64,000 nt of DNA from Moniliella sp. 'wahieum' (lineage: Eukaryota): positions 992,001-1,056,000 of the forward strand of contig RSEE01000008.1 in assembly GCA_003971905.1 (NCBI GenBank), written 5' to 3'. The notes under the pieces are model-generated. The model saw nothing but the letters and a program-made list of their open reading frames with translations. It was not told the origin of the DNA and did not search any database. The translations under genes and the position numbers were made by a program. Below, piece by piece: positions 613 through 50,688 of the stretch (positions within the stretch are counted from its first letter, which is position 1; each line of letters starts with the position of its first letter).

Positions 613-3600
613 TTACCGACTGTATCGACTGTATTGCTTGTTGTGTCGTCCACATGCGGACTTGCTGTGCAGCATATGTTGTTGTGCGGACGCAGACTGC
701 GTCTGCTGCTGGCCTCGCGACCGCCAGCGCGCAAGCAGGACACGAGGCGAAAAGACACGGAAGAGGTAAAAGCACACAAAGCATGCTGCCCAATTGAACG
801 CAATGTAGATGATGAAGATCCACGCATTGCGACTGGCGTGGTCCATGGCCATGCTGATCGTGTTCAAATACTCGTCTGCGTAGGCAAACGCACACCACCC
901 ACAGCCTCCCGATGACAGGGGCACCCAATACCCCCGGCCGGAGGGGACTCGCTTCGCCCCAGCGCACGCGGGGTAACGTTGTCCAACGAGGGACTAAAGT
1001 TGTCGAGGTAATCGGAACACGTCAGGCCCGGGGGAGGGGATATCGGAACCAGCTCTTGCGGCGCACAGAGGATCGGCCGACCGGCCATCGCATTGCCCAT
1101 CTGCGCTTCGACAAAGTAGTGCACCGGTGTGGCGGTAATAATGCGACGCCACAAACTGGGCATGACGCTGGGTGGGACCGTGACGCCGCTGAGGAGGAGG
1201 CAAAACGAGTAGAGTAGAAGGCCGAAAACAGCACGCCCCCCAGGACGGGACTCTGGACCACATTTGCACCGACATGGCCATCAAAGGCCAAAAGCTGTAA
1301 AACAGAAAGACTGTCCAGGCAAAGGATTTGCCAGCCGACCCCACTTTGCCTCCCATCAACCACCATGGAAGCCAGTACAAAAAGCCACAGAACCAGTCCC
1401 ACGGCACCTCAACCGCCATGTACGTCGCAACAAATACCACCCAAGAGTAGATCTTGGCCCCCTGTTCCCTGGTTTTCAAACACCTCGCGCATACTGGTGT
1501 AGTGAGGTAACATATGCGAAGCCAAGGGCACCCTACCACGGACTGCATGTGGAACCACATTCACAGAGGGGAACAGAGCGGTTATGTGTTGTGACAATAA
1601 TGGAAGTTTAAGAGGCTCTAATAAAGTATGCGCGGCGTGAAGATATTGTTATGCGTGTGCACGTACCGGAAAAGTGGGAAAAGAGATTGACTTGGAGACT
1701 GGCTAGGCTCGACTTACTGCCCTGCTGCCAAAATGACGATCCAATGAAGAGCCCGGCAACGAGGTTGAGTGCCATTTTGGAGCCCAAGTAGGCAGGACTG
1801 CGCCAAAAGTGGATCCAGGTACGACGGAAAACAATTATGAATTGGCCCAAGAAGCCCACGGCGTATTCCGACTCATCTTTCTGCCTACTTGAAGTGTCGG
1901 TCCCTAGGTTGCCTCGGCGGTCCTCGAACTCTTGTATGTCATTCTCGATCCTGGCCGCCATCTCACTTTGCTGGTACACAGTTGTCCAATCCTCTTGCTC
2001 GACAGTGCGCGTACCAATGCAGTCCATCATGAACTCCGCCGGATTGGCGGACCCACAAGCGCGGCCAGAGTGGTTCTCAAAGTGGCCAAGCAATGCTCCA
2101 CAGGACCGTTCGGGGGTGTGAATCGGGCCGTTGAAGAGCAAGTTGCCTTTGTCAAGAAGCAGTAGACGATCAAATTGGGCCAACAACTCACCACTAGGCT
2201 GATGGATGGTACAGAGGATGGAATGGCCTGCGGCAGCCATGCGCTTGAAGAAACGGACGAGGGACAAGGCCGTCAGACTGTCCATCCCCGTCGTTGGTGG
2301 TTCGTCAAAAAAAAGGAGGTGATTGGGATTTGCGGCGAGCTCCACACCAATGGTCAAACGCTTGCGCTGCCAGCATCCAGCCCTTCTGCGTCCTCTTCTT
2401 TGCCAACCAAAGCATCGGCCCAGGAACCCATGTCAAGCAAGTCGATCACTTCTTCACACCAAGCAAGTTTTTCCTGTCTCGACTTGGTGGTCTGTTGACG
2501 TAGCATAGCAGAGAATTGCAAGGCCTCTCGGACGGTAGTGGTCGACAGATGAGTGTCCATCTGCTCGCAGTAACCTGTTTGCTGCGAGAAGTTAGGTGGC
2601 AGCGGATATCCATCATAGGTAAAGGTGCCAGTCACCGTCCCCGCATCCTTGGTCCTTCTCGCCAGCACGTTCATTAATGACGTCTTGCCCCCGCCAGAGG
2701 GCCCCATGATGGCAGTCAATTGTCCAGGGGCTACATAGCCTGTCGCCCCGTTCACAATCCGACGTGGCGCTTCGCCGGGGACGGGCACGTCGTACTTCAC
2801 GTCGTGAAACGTGAAGATGCGCCGTTGTTCTTTGCGCATATAATGAGCCTTAGCGAACTGTGATGTCTGGGTGAGAGGCAGGGTATTCTCCGTTGCCCCA
2901 TTCATGCCCGTTAGAGATTTGCCTGATGATGTAGCACGACGGACAAAGCGTAATCCCCGGGACCGGAACGTTCTGATACTTGGAACTCGCATGCCACCGC
3001 ATAGGCCACCACCAAGCCAAGCCAGATGCTAAACAAGCCAAATCCCAGCGCCCAGCGACGGTTCCAAGTCACTGTCCAAATCCCACACACAGAGAGTGTA
3101 AGTAAATCAAGTTGTTTCTCTTCGCACCCTAAAAAAGGAGGGGGCGAGTGCCAACATACAATCATACCTGATTTTGAGGTACTCGGCCCCATTGGCCCGG
3201 TCCGTTCCAGGGGCGACTTCCACGGAAGAGCAAGTGCGGTAGGACGATGATATACCCTGGTATGCTTCACCTCCTGGAACCATCAAGGAACAGGCGGCGT
3301 CCAACTTGCGAAACTCATTGGTCACAATGAGTTCAAAAGCGATCGCAATCGGGTTAAAGTAGGTGAGCCACTTCCACGCTCTTACCATCGATGGCCGTGG
3401 GATGACATAGCCCGAATAAAGCGTAAAGTCGATGATTGCAAGCCCAGCCATCAGAGAGGCATGCTCTTTTGCATGAAAGAGTGCAGCAAAGAAACGATTG
3501 AGGGCGACTGTGGTCTCAGTTTGGAGGAATACAACACTCAAAGTAACAAAGAACTGGCTGGGCGTTCGGCCAAGGTTACAAAGAAAAACATGACGATCAA

Positions 3601-5665
3601 AAAGATTGCCAGTGGCGGGAAGCGAAAGATGAGATCAAGTAAGGAATTGGCTAACGAGTCGGCGCTGGGCCGGACCATACCAAACTTTTTGTGACGGATG
3701 ACAATACGCCGTTGGTCGTAGCCGATCACGATCTCTGTTTGAGCCAAGAAGGAGGTGTACAGGAGCATAAAGAACAAAGCGCTCGTACGAGGGAAGAACC
3801 TTCTGTCGTAGGGGACAAGTTGTAAAGCACGCTCCCATATAAAAGACCTTGGGCAAACATGACCGTCAGGACGACGAAGTGTTGCAATGTATTTCCACTC
3901 TGAATGAGGAAGCGGCGGTAGAGGCACATGCGCAGTTGCTGGATCCAGGTCGTAGCATAACTTAAACCTTGGCTTGCTCCCGCTTTGCGGCGATTGAGAT
4001 TGCGGGCCAGCTCTGTGGCCAAAGCCCCGGCTCTCCTTGTCCCGTTTGGTTCGTTGTGTTCTAGCTCAGCCATGGCAGCATCTATCTCCTTGGACAACCG
4101 CTGCCCCAGTTTGCTTGAGCGCCAATGGATTTCCATGTCGGAAGCTTTGAGAGGAGCAGTGTCTTTATACCCCTCATCGATGTTGCGTGCTGATGGGTCT
4201 GTCACAGAGACAAGAAAGTCCGCGCAGCTTTGGTGCGGGATTTGGCGGTAACCCATATCGGTAAAATACTCGACAGCTCGATCGGTGGGACCCAAGTAAA
4301 CCACTCGTCCTTGGTTCAAGAGACAGACTCGATCAAACTGGGTAAAGATAGGGTCCCCTGCTTGATACATAGCCGTCGCAATGGAGGCATTGGATGCACG
4401 GGCAGCCGTCTTGAGAGAATGGGTCACTTGGGTTGCCGTGCAACTGTCAAGTCCATCCGTTGGCTGATCCAACAGCAAAACCCGGGCTGCCAGAGCCATG
4501 CCCTCATAAACGCTCACTCGTTTCTTCTCTCCGCCGGAGATTCCACGGATTACTGCATTGCCAATCTTGGTATTGTAAATGTGCTTGAGTCGCAGGGCTG
4601 AGGCAAGGGCATGGCGTAGTGTCGACACATACTTCGCCCGCGTGTTCTTCTGCACACCAGAGGCAAGGCGGATTTGTTTGGAAGGGGCCCTAGTTGCATT
4701 AGCAAAATCCATTGTCTGGCGCACAGTAAGCGTAGGAAAATGCACGTCTTCCTCTGCCAGGTAAATCACTTCTCCGCGCTAAAGAATGAAAGAGAGAGAT
4801 AAGAGAGGAACATTTTTGTGTCAGATTGCTGTGCTCTCCTGCAAGATCAATTGAGGGTACGTACAAAAGGCCTGTCAATGTCGTCGGTGGTGAAATGAGA
4901 ATACCGCACATCGCCAGTGACGGATTGGAAGCTCTCGCGGTAGTTCGCAAGCGACTTGGGCAAAGTGGAACATCCGCTCCCGGGGCGGCCAAGGACAAGA
5001 AGCATCTCGCCTGGATGCATCATTCCAGAAGAAGGATGAAGGATGTTCTTGACCGAAGGGGACGCCGTGATGTTTCCCAACAGTTGGAGTGGAGACAGAA
5101 GGAGGGAGAGCATATTGTTGCCGTACTTGGCGCTTGGGCTAGAGCCTTGCACTGCCAGATCGCACCAAATGACTGGCAGGGGCGAGTTGCGGGTGCCATG
5201 AGTCGCCTGACGCATCACGTCGTCACCACCTGGTCGGGCGGAATGCCTTCTCGTCTGCGCCACCTTCGGTCAAGGTAGCGGTAGTCGATGAGGCGCTGCA
5301 GGCTGAAACGGGGCAGATAATAGCTAGACCCTGGGTCAAAGAGAGTCGGCGGGTAGGTGTCGGCATACAGGCTAGATGCAGGGCGGTGGGAGGAGGGCAA
5401 GCCATGGGAGGGGTGGCAGGGTGAGTGCGGTGGCATGGCTACTTTCGCACGCATTGAGGTGGGACAAGGAGGTGCAGATGCTGGTGGAGGCGGTGGGGGG
5501 GTAGGAGTGGTAATTCTGCTCTTCCTTGTCGGCGCATGCTTGGGCCAAGGCGACGGGTGGCTCTCGAGGGGGGGTGAGGGACTGCGGGGTGGTGCTGCGA
5601 AAGGAGGGGTCTGCCAGCGACGCAAAAGAGGGGGAGGGGATGATGGGGTGGCGTGAGTCGGACAT
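613..5665 (-). CDS. Full-size pleiotropic drug resistance (PDR/ABCG) ABC transporter, NBD-TMD-NBD-TMD; multiple introns and frameshifts
   Basis: NBD1 Walker A GRPGSGCST, YLAEEDVHFPTLTVRQT and ISGGEKKRVS. TMD1 YSGYVIPRPSM..W..YFNP..FELIVTNEF. NBD2 GPSGGGKT, TGYCEQMDTH, LTIGVELAANP..LLFFDEP, ILCTIHQPS, NPAEFM. C-terminal PPPGLTCSDYL. Start placed at gccATG 5665 (MSDSRHP), stop at 613. Confidence 0.92.
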
Positions 5666-13900: not shown

Positions 13901-16539
13901 TCGTGGATGGGGGAGTAGCCGAAGCCAACAGACCCACGCTGCCCAAGCTGAGATGGTGGGCTGCATCCTCTTCCTCGGCTGCGGCTCGAGCCCGGCGCTG
14001 CTCGGCAGCCACAGCGCGCTTATGAGCCGCCTCGTACTGCCATCGAATCAGGTCAGAGCAGATGGCCTCGTAGGCGGCCCAATCGCTGGGCCGCCGTTCG
14101 GCTTCGTGAATCAGCTCGAGCGCTTCGGCATGGCGAGCACAGTAATACTGGTAGACGGAAAGTTGAGGCGCCTGAGAATCCCAACAAAAGATCAGTCCCA
14201 AGACTATACCACACAAAAGAGGGAAGGAAACGTACAATCTTTACCAGCTCTTCAGCAACCTGGGTGGTGGCTTGATCAAGGCTGGGGCTCATGGCCAGTT
14301 CCAACAGTGTCGCCTTGCCACTCACCGGCTCGTCCTCCCTCCCATGCTGCGGGTACGACGATGTGCGCCAGGACCCTTGGCGGCCGAGGAGCGGGATTTC
14401 CCGTGGATAGAGCCCTTGGCTCTCGAATGCCATTGTTGGTTAAAATTCGGTCGAGCTTGACGGAAAGTTGCTGGTGCAAGCGCAAGAGCGCTTCCGCGTT
14501 GCGGCATACCATATCCAGTTTCACGTTCGGTTCGATCATGTCGGCACTGGCACGGAAGTAGGCGAGGCGGGGAAGGTTCTCGAAAAAGACCAAGACAAGG
14601 ATGGCAAGGTCGTCGGCATAGGTTCGCTCCGTGTCGACGAGCTCGGTGAGCGAAGCGAGCATCTTAAGACGCCGCTGTTGGTGCGACCGCTGTACTCTCT
14701 GTTCTTCGTCCAGCTCCCCGTCATGCAGTGCCCCCCGTTGGGTGCGGGCGCACCAGGAAGAAAGGCCTCATTTCCCTGCTCACAGCAGCAGGTGCAGAAG
14801 GAGTACGTGGAGATACGGTGGTCGGTAACGAAGGCACCCGTTCAGCTTCTTCTTTCTCCATTGGCGGCGAGGCCGGAAGGGCAGGAGATAAATGTATGGA
14901 TCCGTACCTTTTATCGTGGTCGCAGGGGGAGCAGAAGGAGGTGGTGAGTCGAGAAAGGGCTATCAATCTGGGGCAGGCGGCCTTCCTCTCCTCCTATCTT
15001 CGTCGGGTACCACCTGAGCCCGCGCGGACGGGGTGTAACAAGGACTGGAGTATTACGAGTCGAGCAAAGATAGCAGCGGGACCAGCAGAGAGCGAAGCGG
15101 CGAGCGAGGCACCCGACTAGCCAACCCATCGGAATGGCGTAACGAGGAACGACGGGCCAAGTCAGCCGTCGAAGCCGTACTCGTACTCGAAGTGGCGGTG
15201 GCAGTGCTCCCGCGACGTCCTGAGCTGAGCTTGCGACTGAGACTCGCCTTACTCTTCTGACTGAGCTGACGTAGCAAGCTTCCGCTTGACGAAGGAGGGC
15301 GGGGAGCCAGAATGAGACTCGTACAGCAAGGAGTCGCTGGAACAGGTATGTCCATATCCGAGGGAACAAACGAAGGTAGGGCCTGCCCTTCACCCCTGTT
15401 TCTCCGCTTCCCAAAGGTACGGGCGAGTCGCTGATCTTAGAGCAAGTCAAAGACTCCTGTTGGTGGATGACCCAACGGCAGAGGTGGGAGCCGACGAAGT
15501 ACTACGGGACGGTACTGATTTTGATGGGGCCGGCGATGGGTTCGTGTTGAGCAGCGTTGGTGTGGCCAAGGACGCAGGCAAACGGAGCTGGAAAAGGATT
15601 GTCAGCGGACCAGCAAGCAGAAGAAGAAAACCAGAGAGAGCAAGCGTGACGCTGGGGGGATGATCGGGGGCAATGACTGAGGGGCGTACCTTGCTTGATG
15701 CGGGACTCGCGCGGCTGCGCAGCCTACCGTTTCCCGACCGCGATCGTGAGGCGCTCTTGCCAATACCAGGGTGTGGCGGATGCGGGACGTGGTTTTGCTA
15801 GAGGGAGGCAAAGGGGGCAGCGCGGTGTCAACAGGAGAAGAGGGAACCGAACGTGGTAGGAAGTGACGTCTTTTCCGGGGAGAGGAGGGGGAGCCATAGC
15901 CTCCTGCTTGTGTTGCCCTTTGGCAGCGTCAAGCGAGGGCAGACTCTTTACTCGCCGCGCAACAACGGTACCCGCCTTGGCATCGGCTGAGGTTGTGTTG
16001 CTACGACAGGGGACAGACTCGGGCGGCTGAGGGCCGGTATGCGGGGGATTGGGTGTGATGGGTAGGCATGGCTGCTCAGGGATTCCTCCTGTGGCGTGGG
16101 GGGCTTGTCCTGTACCGCATGGTTGGGGCTGGGGGGTGGATGTGGCAGAGAGGTCTTCGGCCGAGATGAAGCGGTCGCCGGGCGGTGAGGGCGCAGCCAA
16201 GCTGGCGGGAGGCGGGGAGGGAGGGGGTTGCTGGGGAATGGCCGAGGGGGGGGAGGGGGGAGGGTGCAGCTCCGGCGGCTGGACGTGTGCCATGTCGGGA
16301 GAGGGCGGGGCTGGGAAGATGCCGCTAAGCGCGGGCGAGACGGGGACGCCACGTGGGGGAGGCAGGAGGGCGTTGCGCTGGGTCTGGCGCGGCGGGGCGA
16401 GTGGGGGGGGGAGGGGGGGTCGAGGGGGGCGAAGAGAGCGGGGGTGCGCATCGGGGAGGTCGCGTGGGCGAGGCGGAGGCTGGCGGCGACGGGGGGGGGA
16501 GGGGGGCAGAGGGCGCTGGCCCGCGGCAGGGCTGGGCAT
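11000..16539 (-). CDS. Dbl-homology (DH)-PH Rho guanine nucleotide exchange factor with long low-complexity termini
   Basis: LTELVDTERTYADDL (DH start), LSVYQYYCARHAEAL, LRFHDFFVKPVQRIMLYRLVL..MLKY, PH-like YLSLVLFEGFVLMAKV..FEVMAVNQKERDLWL. Pro-rich N-terminus from gccATG 16539. The 3' end is approximate because of frameshifts. Confidence 0.85.
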
Positions 16540-17149
16540 GGCAGCGGCGGCTAGCCACGGCGGGGGATGGTGGTGGTGGGGGGAAAGGGGGGAGAGGGGG
16601 AGGGGAGAGGCGTGGAGAGGAGAGGTGCGAAGCGGAGTGGGAGAAGCGGTGAGAAGCGGAGCGGCGTGCGGCGGCTGGGCTGCGCGGTGCGCAGCCAAGC
16701 GGGGGCCGCACAGCTGGGCTGGTTTAGGCTGCTGCGCTCAGCCCCCACAGCATCCACGCATCAGCGCATCCACGCCTCACCCGTCCCAGCCCCTCCACCC
16801 GCCGCCGGAGTGCCGCAGCCCACCCACACTGCCCCTGCGCCCCGTGCCCCATCATCCATCACCGTCCTCGTCACCCCGATCACGTGTTGCGCGGGGGCAC
16901 ACACCATCCATCCCCGCCATTTCCATCGCCATCGCCCTGCCACCCCCATCTCCCTCCCCATCCAGCATACATCATTCCCCTGGCATGGCGGCGGGGAAGC
17001 TTAGATTCGGCCTGGCGTCGCATGTGGCAGCCGCCCCGTGCCCGCCGCGCTCGCGCCGGTCTAGGCTGCGTGCGCTGGGTTGCTATTTCAGCCCGCGCCT
17101 GTCCAACGTCCTCCCCTCCAAGCAAAGCGTCACGCGTCCGGCGGCGGGA

Positions 17150-17157
17150 TGACGTCA
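17150..17157. promoter_or_regulatory. CRE/ATF-type palindrome TGACGTCA upstream of the RhoGEF
   Basis: Perfect TGACGTCA. TGACGT half-sites also occur in other upstream or intergenic regions (about 7042, 24027-24058, 32570, 38028, 49255, 59950). Confidence 0.3.
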
Positions 17158-17329
17158 CCACTCATCCCAAGTCGCTGTCGGGGGGCGGGCGGGGCGAAGC
17201 TTAACCTACACCCGTGCATCAGCGCAGTGCTAGCACACAGCTCCCCCTGCGCCCTCTCGTCCGGCGCATGTGCACCCTGCCTACCCTCACCTGTGCAGAA
17301 CCCACCCGCACGCATCACTGATAGCGCTC

Positions 17330-17412
17330 ACTAGCACTAGTCACTAATCACTGTGTGCATGTGACTTCCACCTCAAGTCACTAGTCACTAGTCACTAGTC
17401 TAGGCACTAGCC
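17330..17412. repeat. Short tandem (GTCACTA)n / ACTAGT array
   Basis: cactagcactagtcactaatcac...gtcactagtcactagtcactagtctaggcactag. Confidence 0.7.
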
Positions 17413-20085
17413 ACTTCGATATTATGCCAGCTACTGACATCGACTGAGATCTGAGATCCGGGGTAAGTTCATTCACCTTTCCAAGCGCACACTTGGCCCA
17501 AACAGACCAGAGAACCAACCGCCTCCATTGTAGCATCCCCATCGCTTTCCTCCCGCTCCCCACTATATGTGCTCTATCGAATACCACCCCCGATTTGGCT
17601 GTCCCCGCCTCTGTCTCTTCCATACAGGGAGCAGGGCACTGTTGCCATCTACATCTCCCCAGCCGCCAAAAAAAATGGGCCTGCAGATCGCTCTCTCACA
17701 GGCAATTGCAGAAATAGGTAAGGATGATTATTGGGGGTGGAAAACACGAGAAGTTACTCCGTCCAAGTGTCCATCAACTTCCCTCTCTATAATCGAGCAA
17801 TAAGGCCACGTTGCCTCATCGGTCTGTCGCTCTCGTATGCACCTGGCTAAGGTGGCCCTTTTCCCGGGGCTAGGCCTGTCCATGCATGATGAGGATGCGG
17901 AATAAGTTGACGTAGTCAACGTTGCGTCTTCCTCCCTCGGACCCATCCGCCATTGCCTTCTGGTTGTCTTTCTTTTTTTCCTCTACTTTCGTCGTCGTTG
18001 CTGTGGAGAATTGAACGTTGATGGCGTTGATATCAGGCCCAACTAGCCTTAGCACGCTGAAAGTGTCATACAGCCGATCCAGTCTCGGACTGTGCACGTG
18101 AGTTCTCTCTGCTTGTAGTTGTGTGGCTGGTGTTGGCTGAATAGCAATCGAGGCAACGCGTTACAAAACCGTGTGATTAGGATTACTTATCCTTCCTCTG
18201 GTACATATACACACACCATAGTCTCGGCCTGTACTCCCTTTTTGGCGAGAAGACGGAAGGAGAATGGGTAATAGCATGGCAGCTGATGCGCTGATGGCTC
18301 TCACACGTCCTCCACGTTGCTCTCGGACGTATACCAACTTGGCAGGGTTGTCTTGGATGGAGGAGGGGGGGATGTAGGAAGATAAGGGGGCACCAAGGAG
18401 ATACACACACCGCCCCCTTTATTCTCCTTCAAAAAACAGTCTCTGCCTCACTACAGGTCACATGCTGCGTCTTACCCGATGGATCGGAGAGGGTATGGGT
18501 ACCCCATCCAACGTCCGCGATATCTTGTTCTGCCACGATAGTGGGTCTCGTTCGCATGCAGAATATGGTGCCGCAAGAGCTCATACGCTGGGCGTGGATG
18601 GTGTCGCTGGGCGAGGCGGGGACAGATAGTGAGCGTGTGCGGTAAGTGAACAACAGAGGAAGAGGGTGACAATTGAAATGTGTATGAAGTGGTCGCTGGC
18701 GCAGAGGCCACCCAAACGGCCTCGCACGGACAGCCCGAGCCTGCCCGAGCACAACGGCACGCCTCCATCAGCAACCGGTAACTAGTGAAGCTAGTAACCG
18801 GTAACGGTAACCGGTAACCCCAGATGTCCAACGCGGCTCCTAGTCACTTAGTCACGGTGCTTAGGCCCAGGCCCAGTCGCTTCCACCATCTTGCTCGGCG
18901 GGATCGATGATCCATTCGCCTTCGAAGTCTTAGGGCTTCGGGCGCTGAGGCTCTCGGTCCCCGTCGGCAGAGTTAAAAAAACGCTGTGGTCGCACATGCA
19001 TCACACACCAGTATCAATAGGTCGGAGAATATTGCTCGTTTTTGGCCGCCGATTGGTATATGATCGATGATTTCGGTTGCTACTCCACCCAGCCGTCCTC
19101 TGCAGAGGAGGATGGGTCCGGTGGGCTACCTTATTGTTGCAACAGGAGGTAACAGACGCTGGCAGAGGTAACTGCGTTCCCGAGAGATGAGACTGCCACC
19201 GAAGAGAGAGAAGAAAAAGGTGATACCGGTGACGCGCTGTCTTCTTTTTGCCATCGGGGTTGCCGCAACACAAGACACACCCATCAAAAAGGTCAATGTG
19301 TTTGAGGGAAAATGTGCATTGTGGAGATGCATGCTTTGTGGTAGGTGGCACAACACATTATGTTGATACCTTGGAATCGTTTGCATGCGCGATGGGTGTG
19401 CTAGGTCGCGCGCCCCTTCATGATGACGCGGACGCGCGAGATGTGTTGTGTTCACTACCACACAATTAATGAAAGACGCATATTCGAACCTGCGCCTGTG
19501 TGTCTGGTCCCCCTCAACTTCAGAGGCGTAACGGTGTTTCGAATGCAATGCATTGCTTCTCCCCCCCGCCAAAAGTGTCAGAGACAGCTTGAGCAGGGGC
19601 CAACAACCGGTGAAAGCATGGCTTGCCGATCAGGCGTATAGAGAGTGGGCACTCTACTGACATTCTGACTGCATAATAACGAGTGTCCACTTGAGTGTGG
19701 GCAGATGCGTGTGCTTCTTACTGCACGAGCGTCGTTGCTTGTAAGTGCCACGTTGTGCAGCCCTACTGGTGGGGATTCCAAATGCTGGGTGTTGCACATA
19801 CCTCGATAGGCTTCTTCTTCGACTTGCCCCTGGCCTCTGCTGCTGCAGGTGCCCAATCGCCGCGCAGCTGCTTCCGGAGCCTTTCTTCTTCCACTGGCCG
19901 TCGATCAAGGCATGATCAACCAAAGGGCAATCAGTTGCCCCTCTCCGTGCTGAGACGATTTAAAAGCGGACGTGTCCAGCTTCTGTCCCAACTGTCACCA
20001 GTCCCCTCCATTCCCCACTCTCCCCCTGAGTCCACAGACCCCCCACACTACAGGCTGTGCCCGTCCCTTTCCATTCTCTCTCATC

Positions 20086-21545
20086 ATGCAGGTCTACCAA
20101 ATTCTTGCTGAGTACTTGGACCACAAGCCTCTCTCCATCTCAACCTCGTCGGTCATCACACAGCATGCCGACAGCCTCGTACGACCCAAGATGTTTGACC
20201 TCTACGGTTCGGATGTGGTAGCTGAGAAAAACGCATCTGTCGCAGCTGAAGCTCTCACCAATCTCCTGTTGCAATCAAACTTCCCCCCCATCAGTGGCTC
20301 GATGAAAGGCGACTTGGATGCTTACCTGAACAAAATGTTCCTTCACTTGCTGGAAGAGTATCGTCCCAACCACTCTCCTTCACAAGCGTCTTCTCATAAA
20401 GACGAGAAGGAAAGCAAGTCACCTTCGGGCTTATACCGGCCAAGCGTCTACTCGGTTCTCAACGCCTTCAAAAAAAGGAGGATCACATGCTAACCAGCGA
20501 AAGAAAAGCTCTGAGCATGATGACAGGGCTCTCCTCGAGCCAGTTGATTAACCATGTGAGTACCCCTTCTTACCCTTCTGGTCCCGGTGCACTATCGGTA
20601 AGTAAAGAGAACTAGGGCTAACATGGTGGTTTTCTCCCAGTTTCAAAACTCACGTCGCCCTGTCGAATCAAAGCAGCGGGCAGGCAAGAGCAAGCAAGAG
20701 CAGCAAAACCAATCGGCCTCGGCCGCCTCTCCGCAGGAAACACTCTTTGGTTTCTGGCCTGCATCGTCCAGCTGGGATGGGTCCGTTCTGCCCTCCGAAT
20801 CTTCCACTTCGGCACCGACGCGCACTTCGTCCATCACTTCCTCGACCCTCAACTCGGCTCTTACTTGCACAAGCCACTTGCCCTGGTTCTCCCCAACCGA
20901 TTGCTCCACACCTCTCGTGGACCGTGGACAGGAGACGGCGCTCCAAGCGGCCGTCACTACCTCTCTTTCCTCCCCTGCCGTTTCACTCACGCCTCCCCTA
21001 GTCAACCCAGTGGGGGCTCCAACCACGACAGATGACGCCATGTACTTGAACATGATGAGCGCGACAGGCAACTTAATTACTTCGTTCCTCATGCCCCCCA
21101 CACCTGTGTTCTCTCCTTCGTTCAGTGGGACGATGAACACTTCGGCTGCGGAACTCTCGTCGCCTAACCCCTCCCCCAACAACCACCTCCTTTCGTCCTC
21201 ATCCTCACTATACCCTAACCAACCTCTTGTTGGCGCTGACCAGGAGGCCGAATCGGAAACGGCACTTCAATTGCTGCTCTCGGAGCCATCGACCAGGGCG
21301 GGGTGGATGGATGCGACCCGCTGGAATCGACCCCTTCTTCCTTTTTTCAGGACGACGTCAGCTTCAACTTCTCCTCCCTCCCTCTCCCCCTCCTCCGAGT
21401 TGGAGACAGGGCGGCAATGGAGAATGACCTAATGGTTCCGGACTTGGCGCTTGTCGCCCCCCATTCCTCGATGGTGAAACCCGAAGCCCCGTCCCTTGAA
21501 AACACCCCGGGCAGTTGGGACTGCAACACTCCATCGCTCATCTAA
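20086..21545 (+). CDS. Homeodomain transcription factor, HD2/bW mating-type-like architecture
   Basis: Adding one A to the A7 run at 20470-20476 and removing intron 20556-20640 (GTGAGT..GCTAAC..CAG) gives YRPSVYSVLNAFKKKEDHMLTSERKALSMMTGLSSSQLINH|FQNSRR. This has canonical spacing (L16, R31, L34, G39-L40, Q44, F49-Q50-N51, R53). About 115-aa N-terminal domain and a long Ser/Pro/acidic C-terminus. Confidence 0.75.
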
Positions 21546-21977
21546 GAGATCTAGCTGGCACCCACGCACTGTTGGCCCTCCATTTGTTGTGAATACCCTA
21601 CTGGCCCCGCTTCTCTCTTTCCCCTTCTATTCCTTTTTGGACCCGGGAGGCCGTCGTTCCTTGTCTCCTTCTATATCTTGATATATCTGCATCTGCTCCC
21701 AGCTCCGCCCCGCTCCGCCGCCTTGACCGTCGTAGTATAATGAACCCTTTATATCTCTGCATATACTATGAAAGAAGTTTCGCAATCACCCACCCTGTAA
21801 CCTATCTGGTTTGGGTTCCTCCTCCAACGTCATGCCAACGTGCATCCATTGGCAACAGAGGTTAGGCCACCGGGTAAGATGGCATCAGCCTTCAACGAGA
21901 GGGTGTGACAATACAATGGTGTCTATAGATAGTCCAATGGGGGGGGGGGTGATGGGATAATCAACCTTTAAGGCGTA

Positions 21978-23897
21978 TTAGCGTTCGGCTTGAGCTGACG
22001 CCAAGGGGGAGAGGGAGACATGTCCTGATGCTGCAAGTGGCGTTACCGGGTTACCTCCTCCTCGGTTGGGAGGCAAGGGTATATTTCTGCTCGCCCCACA
22101 CCATGACCCCGAACCCGCCCAGAATGAGTGCGCACCCCACCAAGCCCAACAAGGTAGGACGGTTACCCAATAGACCGTCTGCCAACTCCACCAGGACGGT
22201 GGTGAGAAGACAGGAGACGGCAGCAAGTACCGGTCCCCAAAGACCCAGTAAGATTGCTGCCAAGGCAAACTTAGGTTAGCTGTGGCAGACTGGGCGCCGA
22301 CCAGGCCAGCCAATGGAAACGAAACAGAGAGTCACGTACAGAAACAAGCATTGAATATGATCCCAAACCCTGCCACCGCGGCCAGGCTGACGTACACCAT
22401 GGGATTGGGCGGCAACTCAAACGGTTCCCAACCCACAACATGAGCAACGACCACCATTGTCCACAGCAACGCAGCGGTACACACCCCGATTAGCGACGTG
22501 ACCAGACTGGCGTGCAAGCCAAAGGGAAGCGTAGGAGGGCGAGGGTCCCACCGTGCCCCTTCAATCGTAAGGAAAGGAGAGACGGACAAGCGGCGTCTTG
22601 CGCACCGGCAGACAACCCCGTTGCTTCCGCGTCGAGGGTGCCGTCCGGTCGAAGTACATCCAATGCCCGTCCGCCTGCACTACTCTCGGCATCCGATTCA
22701 AACGGCAGCCACGTTCGGCCGGAATCCAAGGTGGTTTGGGGGGAAAGTGTTTCAACTCGTGGTCCCCCTGCAGGGTGCTCTGGTCCACGTCACTTCCCAC
22801 CTCGGGTTCGGCCTCAGCGTCGGTGTCGGTGTCGGTGTCAGTGTCGGTGTAGATCTGGGAACCGCGCCTGCTCTCCGTCGTATCCACATCCGACCGCCGC
22901 GGCGCAACCGGCTCCGCAGGTGGCAACATATTCTCACCTGGTAGCGTTCCCAGCAACTTGAACAGCACCTCGTACAAGCCCATGCTGATCGCGCCGAGCA
23001 AGGCAAGAAGATCGCCGACCAGGGCATGGGGGTACGTCGTATCCTCCGACTCGGTGCCGCTGTACGTGGTCACAGTAACGCCCAGCACGGCAACGGCGGT
23101 GGCAATCACCTTGAACGCTCGCCATTTGTCGCCCAAGATCCACACACTAAACACCAAAGCGGCCAGGGCATTGGTGTTATAAATCGCGCTAATGTCACTC
23201 ATGCGCGTGTAGGGGACCGCAGCGTACCAGCTCATAGCAGCCACGCCGACCGATGGTCAAGATCACGCTGCAAGTCAAAGTGCGGAAGAGGACGTGGGCG
23301 GTAGAGAGGGCCGGAGGAGGCGCCGCCCACATTTCCTTCACCACCTCGGTTGCTGCGTCCACGTCGGCCTCGGCCGCGGTGGCCGAGGCGTGGTGGCGCG
23401 GACTGGCAAGAACAGGGAGAGCGCGAGCATGCCATTGGATCGCCTGCCACAGCAGCGGGAGGTAATGGGCGCGGATGGACTGGCCCGTGCGCAATCGCAG
23501 GCCGCACAGATGAAGGGGGAGGATCAGGGCAAACGAGCTGTGGCCCAGATAGAGCGACAGAACGGGCTTGCGGTAGCCCAGGCCAGCTTGGACCCAGGCG
23601 GCCGATTCCGTCTGGGCCGTGTAGGCAAACAAGCTCAGGACAAAGGCACCCACCGCCGGCTGGCTTCCAGGCAGCGCGTCCAGGGCTGCGCCCGCCCGCC
23701 GCACAGCGCCGGCGCCGGGCACACGCTCCCACCAGGCGGGCCCAGGCTCGGCACGGGCGGCGGCGGGCGCAGGAGGGGCGTTTGGTGCTCGTACTCGTGC
23801 TCGTGCTCGGCAGCACGGGACGGAGGCGGAGATGCACTGGAGGGCTCCCGCATCGGTGGGGGCGGTCACCAAGTCGGTCAGGCACGCGTCGGGGCAT
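21978..23897 (-). CDS. DMT/EamA (SLC35F-like) membrane transporter
   Basis: FVLSLFAYTAQTESAAWVQAGLGYRKPVLSLYLGHSSF, SWYAAVPYTRMSDISAIYNTNALAALVFSVWIL, GDLLALLGAISMGLYEVLFK, GWEPFELPP, LGLWGPVLAAVSCLLTTVLV. Start and stop are approximate. Confidence 0.85.
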
Positions 23898-24650: not shown

Positions 24651-26410
24651 TTAGGCTACAACCGAATCTGAATGGGCCTCTTTTTCCTTGTCATCCTCTT
24701 CAATGTCGACGGGCGCGACAGTGGCAATGTGCTTGTCGGTAAAGTCATTGTAGGGATAAGGCAAGGGGTGGGCCTCGGGCCGTACGCCGGTCGCAATCTC
24801 CACAATCTCGGGGTGGATCGTGGTCGTCGGCCCAACAAAGTGCTTGCGCGCCTCAAAGATCCATGTCAACGCACAGAAGAGAGCGATGACTGCCTCGGCC
24901 ACAATGGTCCAGTTCATTTCGTTGCCCCCCGTAACCGGTACGGCGGTGGGGAAGAAGAAGAAGACAGTTGTGACCAAATTAAAGGCGACGGCAATGATGT
25001 TAATCACCGGCCCGGCCCGGCCTAGGTTCCAGCTGCGCTGTTGACCCGGCGGAACATAAGCATCCAGGATGCCGCGTCCACGGAGAAGGATGATCACGAC
25101 TGGAACCATATACGACATCTGGAAGTTGATCACGGACGAGTCGAGAATCGCTCCATACCCAGCGGGCGTGCCAAGGTAAATCAAACCAAAGACGGTGACC
25201 CAGAAACTGGTGAAGGTGATGGCCATGACAGGCGTGTGGAGCGTCTTGCTTTCGTACTGCCACCAGCGGTGGAAGAACAAGGCGCGGTCCATCGCGAGCG
25301 AGTGCACAACCCGCGATGCGGCAGTCAGAATTCCTGTCGCGGCAAAGCACATGGACAAAAGGGGGAACATGTTGAGGCAAATGGCACCGGCCTGGTTGCG
25401 CGTAGCTTGGTACAGGATCTCCAGGAGTGGACCTGCGCTCGAGGTAATCACCATGTTATAGTCGCTCAAGCAAAAGAGCAGAACGATGAGGAAGACAAGG
25501 CTCAGACTCGCGCCGAGCATAACGGCCATCACCATAACTACACAGAAACAGGACCAGTCAGCTTTGAGCATGAGTGAGACGAGGATGGATGGGAGTGCAT
25601 GAACGTACTTGCAGGAACGTACTTGGCCGGGTTGTTCACCTCCTCGGCAATGTGCAATACCCCGTCAATACCTATTATGAACAAAAAACGTTAGCGGAGG
25701 AAGCAGACGCGAGGGGGGGGGTATAGATGTACACACCAGTCAAGGAGAAGGCCGATTGAAGCAGACCGAGGATCCAGGCCACCCCGTCAGGCCAGCCAGT
25801 GTTGTTGACGAACGAGGCAAACACGAACTTGCCGGTCTGGAACTTTCCCGAAGAGCAAGCGAGGCAGACGATCGACATGACCGTCACACCTGAAATCATC
25901 CAGAGAAGCGAAGCGCGATTGACCGTGTCAAGCAACTTGATGCCAAACACGTTGATAGCCCAGGCAGCAATGGTGAGAGCAAGGTAGATGAGGAAGATGT
26001 GCCAGTTCTTTACCTCATAGGTGGGGTCGCGAAGGGCAATGATACCGGTAACAAACTGAGCAAAGATGGAGGAGGCAGAAGCTGTGACGGCAATCCAGCC
26101 TGCACCATTGATCCAGGCTGTAATGTAGGAGATGACGATGCGCCGCTTCGTGTACTGCACCCCCTGGGGTGCACACAAAAGATAGGCCCAGCTCGAGACG
26201 CCGGACCAAATCGGGAGCACTGCCAATCTCCGCCAGGGAGAGGGCCATGCACAGGATGCCACACCAGCTCGCCACCATGCCCCAGATAACTGCTTCAGGT
26301 CCACCCGAAGACAGGACAGTCGAGAGCGATCCCGATGCTGCGATGGGCGAATTCAGAATGGACAGACTGACGCCGACGGCGGCCATGGGCCCAAAGGACT
26401 TGCGTGGCAT
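24651..26410 (-). CDS. APC-superfamily amino acid/choline/GABA permease (HNM1/UGA4-like)
   Basis: SSGGPEAVIWG..MALSLAEI, SYITAWINGAGW, FVNNTGWPDGVAWILGLLQSAFSLTG, DGVLHIAEEVNNPAK micro-exon, AASRVVHSLAMDRALFF, FFFFPTAVPVTGGNEMNW. Confidence 0.9.
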
Positions 26411-49547: not shown

Positions 49548-50688
49548 ATGTCCTCCTTCTTTTTGGACCAGGCCGACGGTGGCGTGCTGCGCCGTCTGAG
49601 TGCCCTGCCGTACCCGCTGCGCCCATCGGGCGTGTTTGTGTCGCAGCAGGTCTTTGAGTGGTCCTTGTCCGCCTGGACTCCTGCCCTGTCGGCGCTGGTC
49701 TACCTCGTGGCTGTGCGCTGGGCCAACCAGCGACGGAGTCGCGCCATCCGTGCCGGCAAGCCACTGCCCGACCTCATCAAGCGCAGCAAGGCGCTTTCGT
49801 TCCTTGTCTTGCTCCACAATGCCTTCCTTGCTCTGTACTCGGGGTGGACCTTTGTTCATGCCGTATTGGGTATCGTTCCCTACTTCCTCAGCGGCATTCA
49901 GCAGGGCGGGCGCCCACGGTTTCCGCAATGCCTACTGCACCGTGCCCACCAACGACCCGGCCGGGCTGGGTCGCTACGTATGGTTCTTTTACATGAGCAA
50001 GTACTATGAGATTGTCGATTCCGTCATTCTCGCCGCCAAGGGCAAGAAGGTGTCTAACCTTCAGGCGTACCACCACGCCGGCGCCATTGCCGCCATGTGG
50101 TCCGGCACTCGGTACAGGTACGTTTTCCCTCCCGTCCCTATCTATCTTGTTTGGCTCCACATAACTAACCAACGCACTCACACCATGAATAGTGCCAATG
50201 GGATCTGGATCTTCCTCTTGTTCAACAGCGGCATCCACACCATGATGTACTCGTACTACACGCTCTCTACGCTCAAGTTCCCCTGGGCCGGGGCGGTGAA
50301 GCAAGCGATGACGACGGCGCAAATTGCGCAGCTGTTCTTCGGGTGCATTATTGCGTCGCTGTACCTGCTGGTTCGCTACTCTCCCGCGGCCTACCAGGGC
50401 GCAGCTCCGTCGGTCGGTGCGACGCCGATTGTGGAAGCGACCCGGGGCGCGTTTACCTACACGTGGGACGCGTTGACTACCAGCCACGGCGCGGCGGATG
50501 CGTACCACCGCCTGCACGACTTGCTTACCTCGCCCGACGTGCGCATGCCGTGCTGCGCCTCGACGGGCCACGCGTTTGCCGTTGCACTCAATGTGCTCTA
50601 CCTCATCCCGCTCATCGTCCTCTTTGTTCGCTTCTACCTCCGCAGCTACTTCCAGCCCACGGCCACCAAGCGCTCCAAGGCCGAGTAA
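49548..50688 (+). CDS. GNS1/SUR4 (ELO) fatty acid elongase, QxxHH subtype
   Basis: LHNAFLALYSGWTF, FYMSKYYEIVDSVIL..KGKK..LQAYHHAGA, FNSGIHTMMYSYY, MTTAQIAQ, NVLYL..LFVRFYLRSY. Intron 50118-50192. Confidence 0.92.

Follow-up and report, generated by a model that had tools for sequence, protein, structure and literature searches.

In a 64,000-nucleotide stretch of Moniliella sp. 'wahieum' (assembly GCA_003971905.1, contig RSEE01000008.1, positions 992,001 to 1,056,000 of the forward strand; hereafter the window, whose own numbering is used for all positions), we examined a candidate homeobox gene at 20086 to 21545 on the plus strand. On balance, we favor the view that this is a real gene for a protein of ~458 amino acids (aa) with a very divergent non-TALE homeodomain, that the breaks in its reading frame are small insertion or deletion (indel) errors of the assembly, and that it has no relatives outside the homeodomain-like segment. 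The protein would begin with a helical N-terminal domain of ~108 residues, continue through the divergent non-TALE homeodomain into a short basic stretch and a long region rich in Ser, Thr, and Pro, and end in an acidic/hydrophobic C terminus; it would presumably act as a nuclear transcription regulator. An earlier note on this DNA had described a hidden, solitary gene of the HD2/bW mating type in which the nearly invariant Trp48 of the homeodomain is replaced by His. The homeodomain-like segment and the replacement are borne out by our analysis, while the proposed mating-type origin is not.

Coding signal and predicted intron

Codon usage indicates that 20086 to 21545 is a real protein-coding gene. 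In a table of codon log-odds trained on ten Pfam-supported open reading frames (ORFs) from the same window, the proposed frame ranked first of six in all four of its successive segments (+0.219, +0.060, +0.087, and +0.144 per codon), and both flanks of the candidate scored negative in all six frames. The segments together contain 456 codons and no stops. An ATG at 20086 opens frame A, which runs to a stop at 20491 to 20493. The first segment of exon 1 (20086 to 20475, plus strand; 130 codons, +0.219 per codon) encodes the ~108-residue N-terminal domain, a linker, and the N-terminal arm and helix 1 of the homeodomain. Frame B, also on the plus strand, is open from 20400 and terminates in L-I-N-H at 20555; it supplies the second segment (20478 to 20555, plus strand; 26 codons), with the loop, helix 2, the turn, and the start of helix 3, the last residue being His48. 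The frame of exon 2 begins with F-Q-N-S-R-R at 20641 and stays open until 21430 to 21432, and its first segment (20641 to 21255, plus strand) carries homeodomain positions 49 to 60, a short basic stretch (6 Lys or Arg within 30 residues), and the Ser/Thr/Pro-rich region. The C-terminal segment (21258 to 21545, plus strand; ~95 codons, acidic/hydrophobic) lies in a third frame relative to exon 2, open from 21240 and closed by TAA at 21543 to 21545, with a codon score of +0.144 for 21351 to 21542. The sliding codon score follows the same path, favoring frame 1 at ~20035 to 20440, frame 0 at 20485 to 20555, frame 1 at 20620 to ~21250, and frame 0 at ~21250 to 21545.

The gene model of the earlier note stands in part: the motif is present, but the model needs four frame segments, joined by one intron and across two breaks, a complexity that the note had understated. 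That the gene is hidden can be maintained, as gene callers would miss or mangle a coding gene whose proposed frame is the best of six and yet is broken twice. The Ser/Pro/acidic tail was likewise recovered, with Ser, Thr, and Pro making up 0.38 of 288 residues and the final 95 residues being more acidic (Asp plus Glu, 0.14).

The predicted intron is 85 nucleotides (nt) long (20556 to 20640, plus strand), with donor GTGAGT at 20556, branch site CTAAC at 20618, and acceptor CAG at 20638 to 20640. It falls between homeodomain residues 48 and 49, exactly at a frame change, and is similar to other introns inferred in the window. Both strands of the window taken together (128 kb) contain just four instances of the strict module GTRAGT...CTRAY...YAG. 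An alternative donor, GTAAGT at 20598, would give a 43-nt intron and was rejected at a profile score of <1 bit; we also found no other splice site from which a Trp could come at position 48.

Residues and profile scores of the homeodomain-like segment

Read across the predicted intron, the segment falls into the register of a non-TALE homeodomain split after residue 48, as the earlier note had proposed, with a likeness that exceeds chance in the anchored test described below and is weak in ordinary local profile search. Positions that match are the hydrophobic residues at 8, 13, and 16 and F20, R31, L34, S35, G39, L40, Q44, L45, F49, Q50, N51, and R53; those that do not are P5, T38, N47, H48, S52, and P55. 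In the parts of Buerglin and Affolter cited here, L16, F20, W48, and F49 constitute the homeodomain signature, Phe and Tyr are the only alternatives given to Trp at position 48, and 99 of 106 Drosophila homeodomains carry Arg5 (PMC4901127). The candidate departs from this core signature, with V16 (followed by L17), F20, and F49 present and His at 48. Likewise, in place of a basic N-terminal arm with Arg5, it has Pro at 5 and K3 as the sole basic residue. Since those parts of the survey list Phe or Tyr at 48 and such a preponderance of Arg5, His48 and Pro5 lie outside the range published there. The recognition-helix residues N51 and R53 are present in the F-Q-N-S-R-R of exon 2, the one place where the window, translated in all six frames, has x-F-Q-N-x-R-x.

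Given the predicted splice site, His48 is encoded at the DNA level by CAT at 20553 to 20555. All three bases differ from TGG, so that, as already argued in the earlier note, a one-base error does not account for it; because CAT differs from TGG at every base, His48 is not an indel artifact either. The further claim that F20 is displaced could not be established: it depends on adding one base at the first frame break, which creates one extra loop residue; with two bases skipped there instead, a Phe falls at position 20.

If the segment folds as proposed, it would keep the recognition-helix contacts F49, Q50, N51, and R53 and would have lost the core Trp48 (to His), the minor-groove Arg5 (to Pro), Arg52 (to Ser), and Lys/Arg55 (to Pro). 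With these losses, the protein alone would probably be less stable and bind DNA weakly, and a partner recruited via the helical N-terminal domain may be needed.

To score the segment, we built our own homeodomain profile. Metagenome contigs were scanned for one GC-rich back-translation of W-F-Q-N-R-R; the 118 loci found gave 63 stop-free 60-residue windows, 42 of which were confirmed by Pfam as full-length homeodomains and made up the profile. The candidate was joined across intron and break in silico. In an anchored test, an ungapped 60-column score was calculated in the register fixed by F-Q-N-x-R, and the candidate scored 22.2 bits. The maximum was 3.2 over 173,687 windows of real proteins (a set of 121 related ABC transporters and ten ORFs of this window, and hence not diverse) and -5.4 over 39,725 stop-free six-frame windows of the window itself (z of 7.1), while none of 50,000 shuffles reached 22.2 bits, for an empirical P below 1e-5. 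Columns 48 to 53 of this score are inflated, the training windows having been chosen by the exact WFQNRR pattern. Columns 1 to 47, to which the FQN.R anchor adds nothing, contributed 11.4 bits, a value that none of the 175,390 real-protein windows and one of the 50,000 shuffles attained. Within them, columns 1 to 24 gave 4.8 bits (reached by 2.9e-3 of real-protein windows), and columns 25 to 47, which are unaffected by how the A run at the first break is repaired, gave 6.6 bits (reached by 4.3e-4 of 178,534). As controls on columns 1 to 47, 12 chance WFQNRR windows that Pfam had rejected scored -18 to -56, three held-out windows with a true half-homeodomain scored 12.5 to 19.1, and the training sequences scored at least 48.8. 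On the common 60-column scale, the candidate's 22 bits compare with a minimum of 81 among training homeodomains. These results suggest that the segment probably has the homeodomain fold.

A number of observations pull the other way and have to be set against our favored reading as a whole. The hallmark residues at positions 5, 48, 52, and 55 are all missing. Pfam searches with four separate contiguous pieces, unspliced and unrepaired, returned no hit at E ≤ 10. Local hmmsearch with our own profile gave only weak scores, 10.0 bits when two bases were skipped at the break and 6.7 bits when an X was placed there; composition-matched shuffles equaled these scores in 1 of 2,000 and 4 of 2,000 cases, respectively, and the best of 969 six-frame ORFs reached 7.2 bits, beating the X version (1/969). 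The anchored test was devised after this weak outcome, and its two limits given above, the narrow set of real proteins and the inflated columns, apply to its strength. Expression and splicing of the candidate are predictions from its sequence, and our searches turned up no relative against which purifying selection could be gauged. Finally, an ABC transporter gene elsewhere in the window combines an in-frame stop with frame breaks, so that some breaks in the window, including those of the candidate, may be real mutations.

A real orphan coding gene of some other fold, with a merely coincidental likeness to the homeodomain, would accord with the local scores of 6.7 to 10 bits, the absence of Pfam hits on the pieces, and the missing Trp48 and Arg5. 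Moreover, FQN.R alone is expected ~0.4 times per window by a rough estimate from residue frequencies. However, coincidence fits poorly with the score of columns 1 to 47, which hardly any null window attained, with the contribution of both halves to it, and with the strongly negative scores of chance WFQNRR windows, and we regard it as unlikely. A profile from 12 non-animal, non-plant-like sequences gave the same 8.9-bit domain score. The 26-residue helix-2 piece, searched by sequence against the PDB, had no match at E ≤ 10. Our profile scores divergent homeodomains (L103 and L114) 15 to 21 bits below Pfam; given this underscoring, the corrected protein could score on either side of Pfam's 22.9-bit cutoff.

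Frame breaks and assembly quality

The first frame break lies in an A7 homopolymer at 20470 to 20476 (plus strand), where an intact frame would require one base more or two fewer; it was placed by the overlap of frames A and B and by the codon score, whose optimum (20469 to 20474) falls within the run. The second lies somewhere within 21242 to 21303 (plus strand), where the sliding codon score switches frame with an optimum that is flat across 21249 to 21287; the zone holds the runs AAA (21257 to 21259), GGG (21296 to 21298), and GGGG (21300 to 21303). Introns were considered as a cause of the breaks and rejected, because not one of the 55 GT-AG pairs listed for the first break or the 23 listed for the second has a canonical donor. 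Programmed -1 frameshifting at the A run was also rejected, as the codon phase yields no X-XXY-YYZ slippery site by inspection of the sequence.

Three further genes in the window contain breaks of the same kind. A PDR/SNQ2-type ABC transporter gene (715 to 5215, minus strand) has at least five frame switches without room for introns; at those near 3798, 3570 to 3586, and 2372, protein and DNA alignments to five homologues are gapless. It also has further frame changes at 1288 to 933 and one in-frame stop near 4781, and it may be a true pseudogene or, alternatively, the gene hit hardest by assembly indels. In an amino-acid permease gene, the AA_permease_2 profile continues across a frame change near 26213 (minus strand), which falls between its positions 58 and 59, and in an ELO-family elongase gene, the Pfam profile is similarly split near 49890 (plus strand); both changes sit at short G, C, or T runs. 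The window also contains long intact ORFs (RhoGEF, 833 aa; DEAD-box helicase; PI4-kinase). By a rough tally, there are about nine breaks in ~18 kb of recognized coding sequence, or one small indel per 1 to 3 kb. A compact fungal genome would hardly hold that many independent pseudogenes, which makes assembly error the most likely explanation. Since such intronless breaks recur in these three genes, the two breaks in the candidate, too, are most likely assembly indel errors rather than mutations.

The main competing view of the breaks is that the candidate is the decaying pseudogene of a former homeobox gene, in which the frameshifts are real and His48, Pro5, Ser52, and Pro55 reflect relaxed constraint. 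It would explain two breaks within 1.46 kb, the loss of four hallmark residues, and flanking domains without relatives, and the ABC gene in the same window also looks degraded, with its in-frame stop and frame breaks. However, decay sits uneasily with 456 codons that lack in-frame stops and with a codon bias that is kept in every segment. The first break is in a homopolymer, the second zone holds several short runs, and the similar breaks in the permease and elongase genes point to assembly indels. Furthermore, TGG to CAT takes three substitutions, so that His48 is not a product of recent decay. We consider a pseudogene to be doubtful, and the suggestion in the earlier note of a degenerate copy is weakened in the same way, given that unrelated genes of the window are broken alike. 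As a practical matter, an assembly this rich in small indels needs polishing before gene models are built on it or pseudogenes are called.

Relatives, neighborhood, and comparison with known homeodomain proteins

Outside the homeodomain-like segment, the predicted protein resembles nothing in the libraries searched. A single-sequence AlphaFold2 model of the N-terminal 130 residues has helices at 3 to 13, 18 to 40, 43 to 63, 71 to 92, and 121 to 126 at low confidence, the mean predicted local distance difference test (pLDDT) score being 56. The first four helices would form the N-terminal domain, predicted from this model to be all-helical, and would be followed by a disordered linker and by the short helix 121 to 126, where helix 1 of the homeodomain should start. 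In a HMMER search of these 130 residues against 1.84 billion representatives, the only match was a repeat protein (P0001, 449 aa), which we judged spurious, as it is internally repeated and Cys/Ile-rich and matches in five stretches. The same residues had no usable match in the Protein Atlas and hit no Pfam family at E ≤ 10, and the 263-residue frame of exon 2 had no match among proteins of 144 to 461 aa or of 462 to 2,000 aa. These relatives were sought with the N- and C-terminal parts, and orthologues conserved in the homeodomain alone would escape such searches. For the neighboring ABC ORF, the best named matches were from Acaromyces, Pseudozyma flocculosa, and Violaceomyces at 38 to 39% identity, which suggests that the host belongs to the basidiomycetes, within the Ustilaginomycotina or close to them, and is without a close sequenced relative in the protein libraries used. 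A Protein Atlas search with the neighboring PI4-kinase ORF was uninformative about taxonomy.

The upstream region (17100 to 20035, both strands) carries no coding signal, all six frames being negative and containing stops; it holds TTTAAAAG at 19959 to 19966, and a CT-rich leader precedes the ATG. No divergently transcribed HD partner was found on either strand of these ~2.9 kb. The earlier note was right to call the gene solitary: no second homeodomain occurs in the 64 kb, there is no other WF.N.R or FQN.R, and no other six-frame ORF exceeds 7.2 bits. Pfam identified the neighbors as PDR ABC, methyltransferase, Tim17, RhoGEF, EamA, amino-acid permease, cyclin, LSM, emp24, DEAD-box helicase, ELO, PLP decarboxylase, PI4-kinase, and NYN genes. 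None of these resembles the usual flanks of the smut b locus or a pheromone receptor. More specifically, Pfam was run on 138 of the window's 155 stop-to-stop ORFs that have at least 140 aa and on 84 ORFs of at least 45 aa, and no acetyltransferase-, C1D-, or STE3-type neighbor was found; the 84 came from selected regions and overlap the 138, and 6 of the 17 unscanned ORFs lie opposite the RhoGEF gene. The pheromone-response element ACAAAGGGA has no exact occurrence and 12 with one mismatch (13.1 expected), without enrichment upstream of the candidate.

Three other features of the window were observed in passing. At 15727 to 17149, GC-rich (~65%) open frames overlap on both strands and encode Pro/Ala/Gly-rich low-complexity sequence without a Pfam hit, the codon score jumping among minus-strand frames. 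A G11 homopolymer lies at 21939 to 21949, ~400 nt downstream of the candidate's stop. The EamA/SLC35F ORF contains an Asp-Thr dipeptide repeat at ~22800 to 22860 (minus strand) that looks like a microsatellite in coding sequence.

The bW/HD2 origin proposed in the earlier note can be framed as a solitary paralogue derived from a mating-type (MAT) HD gene that kept its N-terminal dimerization domain and serves as a partner of, or a dominant-negative factor for, MAT HD proteins. As described in the parts of PMC10601111 cited here, b-HD proteins have ~400 and ~600 aa and a layout of variable region, homeodomain, and constant region, and the domain order and ~458 aa of the candidate fit that description. 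The predicted all-helical N-terminal domain would be in keeping with this origin, and fast divergence of the flanks would account for the absent matches. On the other hand, the N-terminal piece hits no Pfam mating family at E ≤ 10, no protein in the two large libraries searched is similar, and the adjacent divergent partner, the second homeodomain, and the acetyltransferase-, C1D-, or STE3-type neighbors all failed to appear in the scans described above. The three-part layout is not specific to b-HD proteins but is common to many regulators, transcription factors among them, and in the literature searched we found no statement that an intron at this homeobox position typifies HD2 genes. The label itself is ambiguous, because the cited parts of two rust papers pair bW with HD1 and bE with HD2, the reverse of "HD2/bW" (PMC10601111, PMC5295586). 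We therefore hold a MAT-derived paralogue to be improbable, and likewise the more specific notion of a functional His48 homeodomain in a solitary, fast-evolving MAT-derived regulator outside the MAT locus, for instance a partner-dependent or dominant-negative subunit acting via its N-terminal domain. A mating-type HD gene may be the ancestor, but nothing positive speaks for it, and the mating-type story is speculation. Very improbable, lastly, is that there is no gene but a set of chance open frames in C-rich noncoding DNA, for although homologues are lacking and the frames are broken, the proposed frame is the best of six in four successive segments between flanks that are negative in all frames, and a canonical intron lies exactly at a frame change.

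Our favored reading, that of a real gene for a very divergent non-TALE homeodomain protein, would carry some weight beyond this locus. Should the corrected gene be expressed and its product adopt the homeodomain fold, the known tolerance of the homeodomain core would widen; published surveys, in the parts cited above, list only the aromatic Phe and Tyr at position 48. If the reading is true, it would also add a lineage-specific regulator in a poorly sampled group of basidiomycetes.

Among known systems, the MAT HD proteins of basidiomycetes (bE/bW, HD1/HD2, and Sxi1/Sxi2) are matched in the predicted helical N-terminal domain, the homeodomain-like segment, the long C-terminal region, the size of ~458 aa, and the fast-diverging flanks. 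The candidate differs from them in lacking a divergent partner, a second homeodomain within 64 kb, and similarity outside the homeodomain. In TALE homeodomains, the stretch between helices 1 and 2 is longer by three residues, and Asn47 together with a T-G-L-S turn before helix 3 is common in TALE proteins. Both of the latter features are also present in the candidate. It does not, however, carry the three-residue insertion and differs from TALE homeodomains (PF05920, Homeobox_KN) in having no or one extra residue there (four or five between F20 and position 25) and in its Gln50, as in typical homeodomains. Compared with the typical non-TALE homeodomain (PF00046), the candidate differs in His48, Pro5, Ser52, and Pro55, the last of which should end helix 3 early, and resembles it in its matching register, in its length of 60 or 61 residues depending on how the A run is repaired, and in the basic stretch that follows helix 3.

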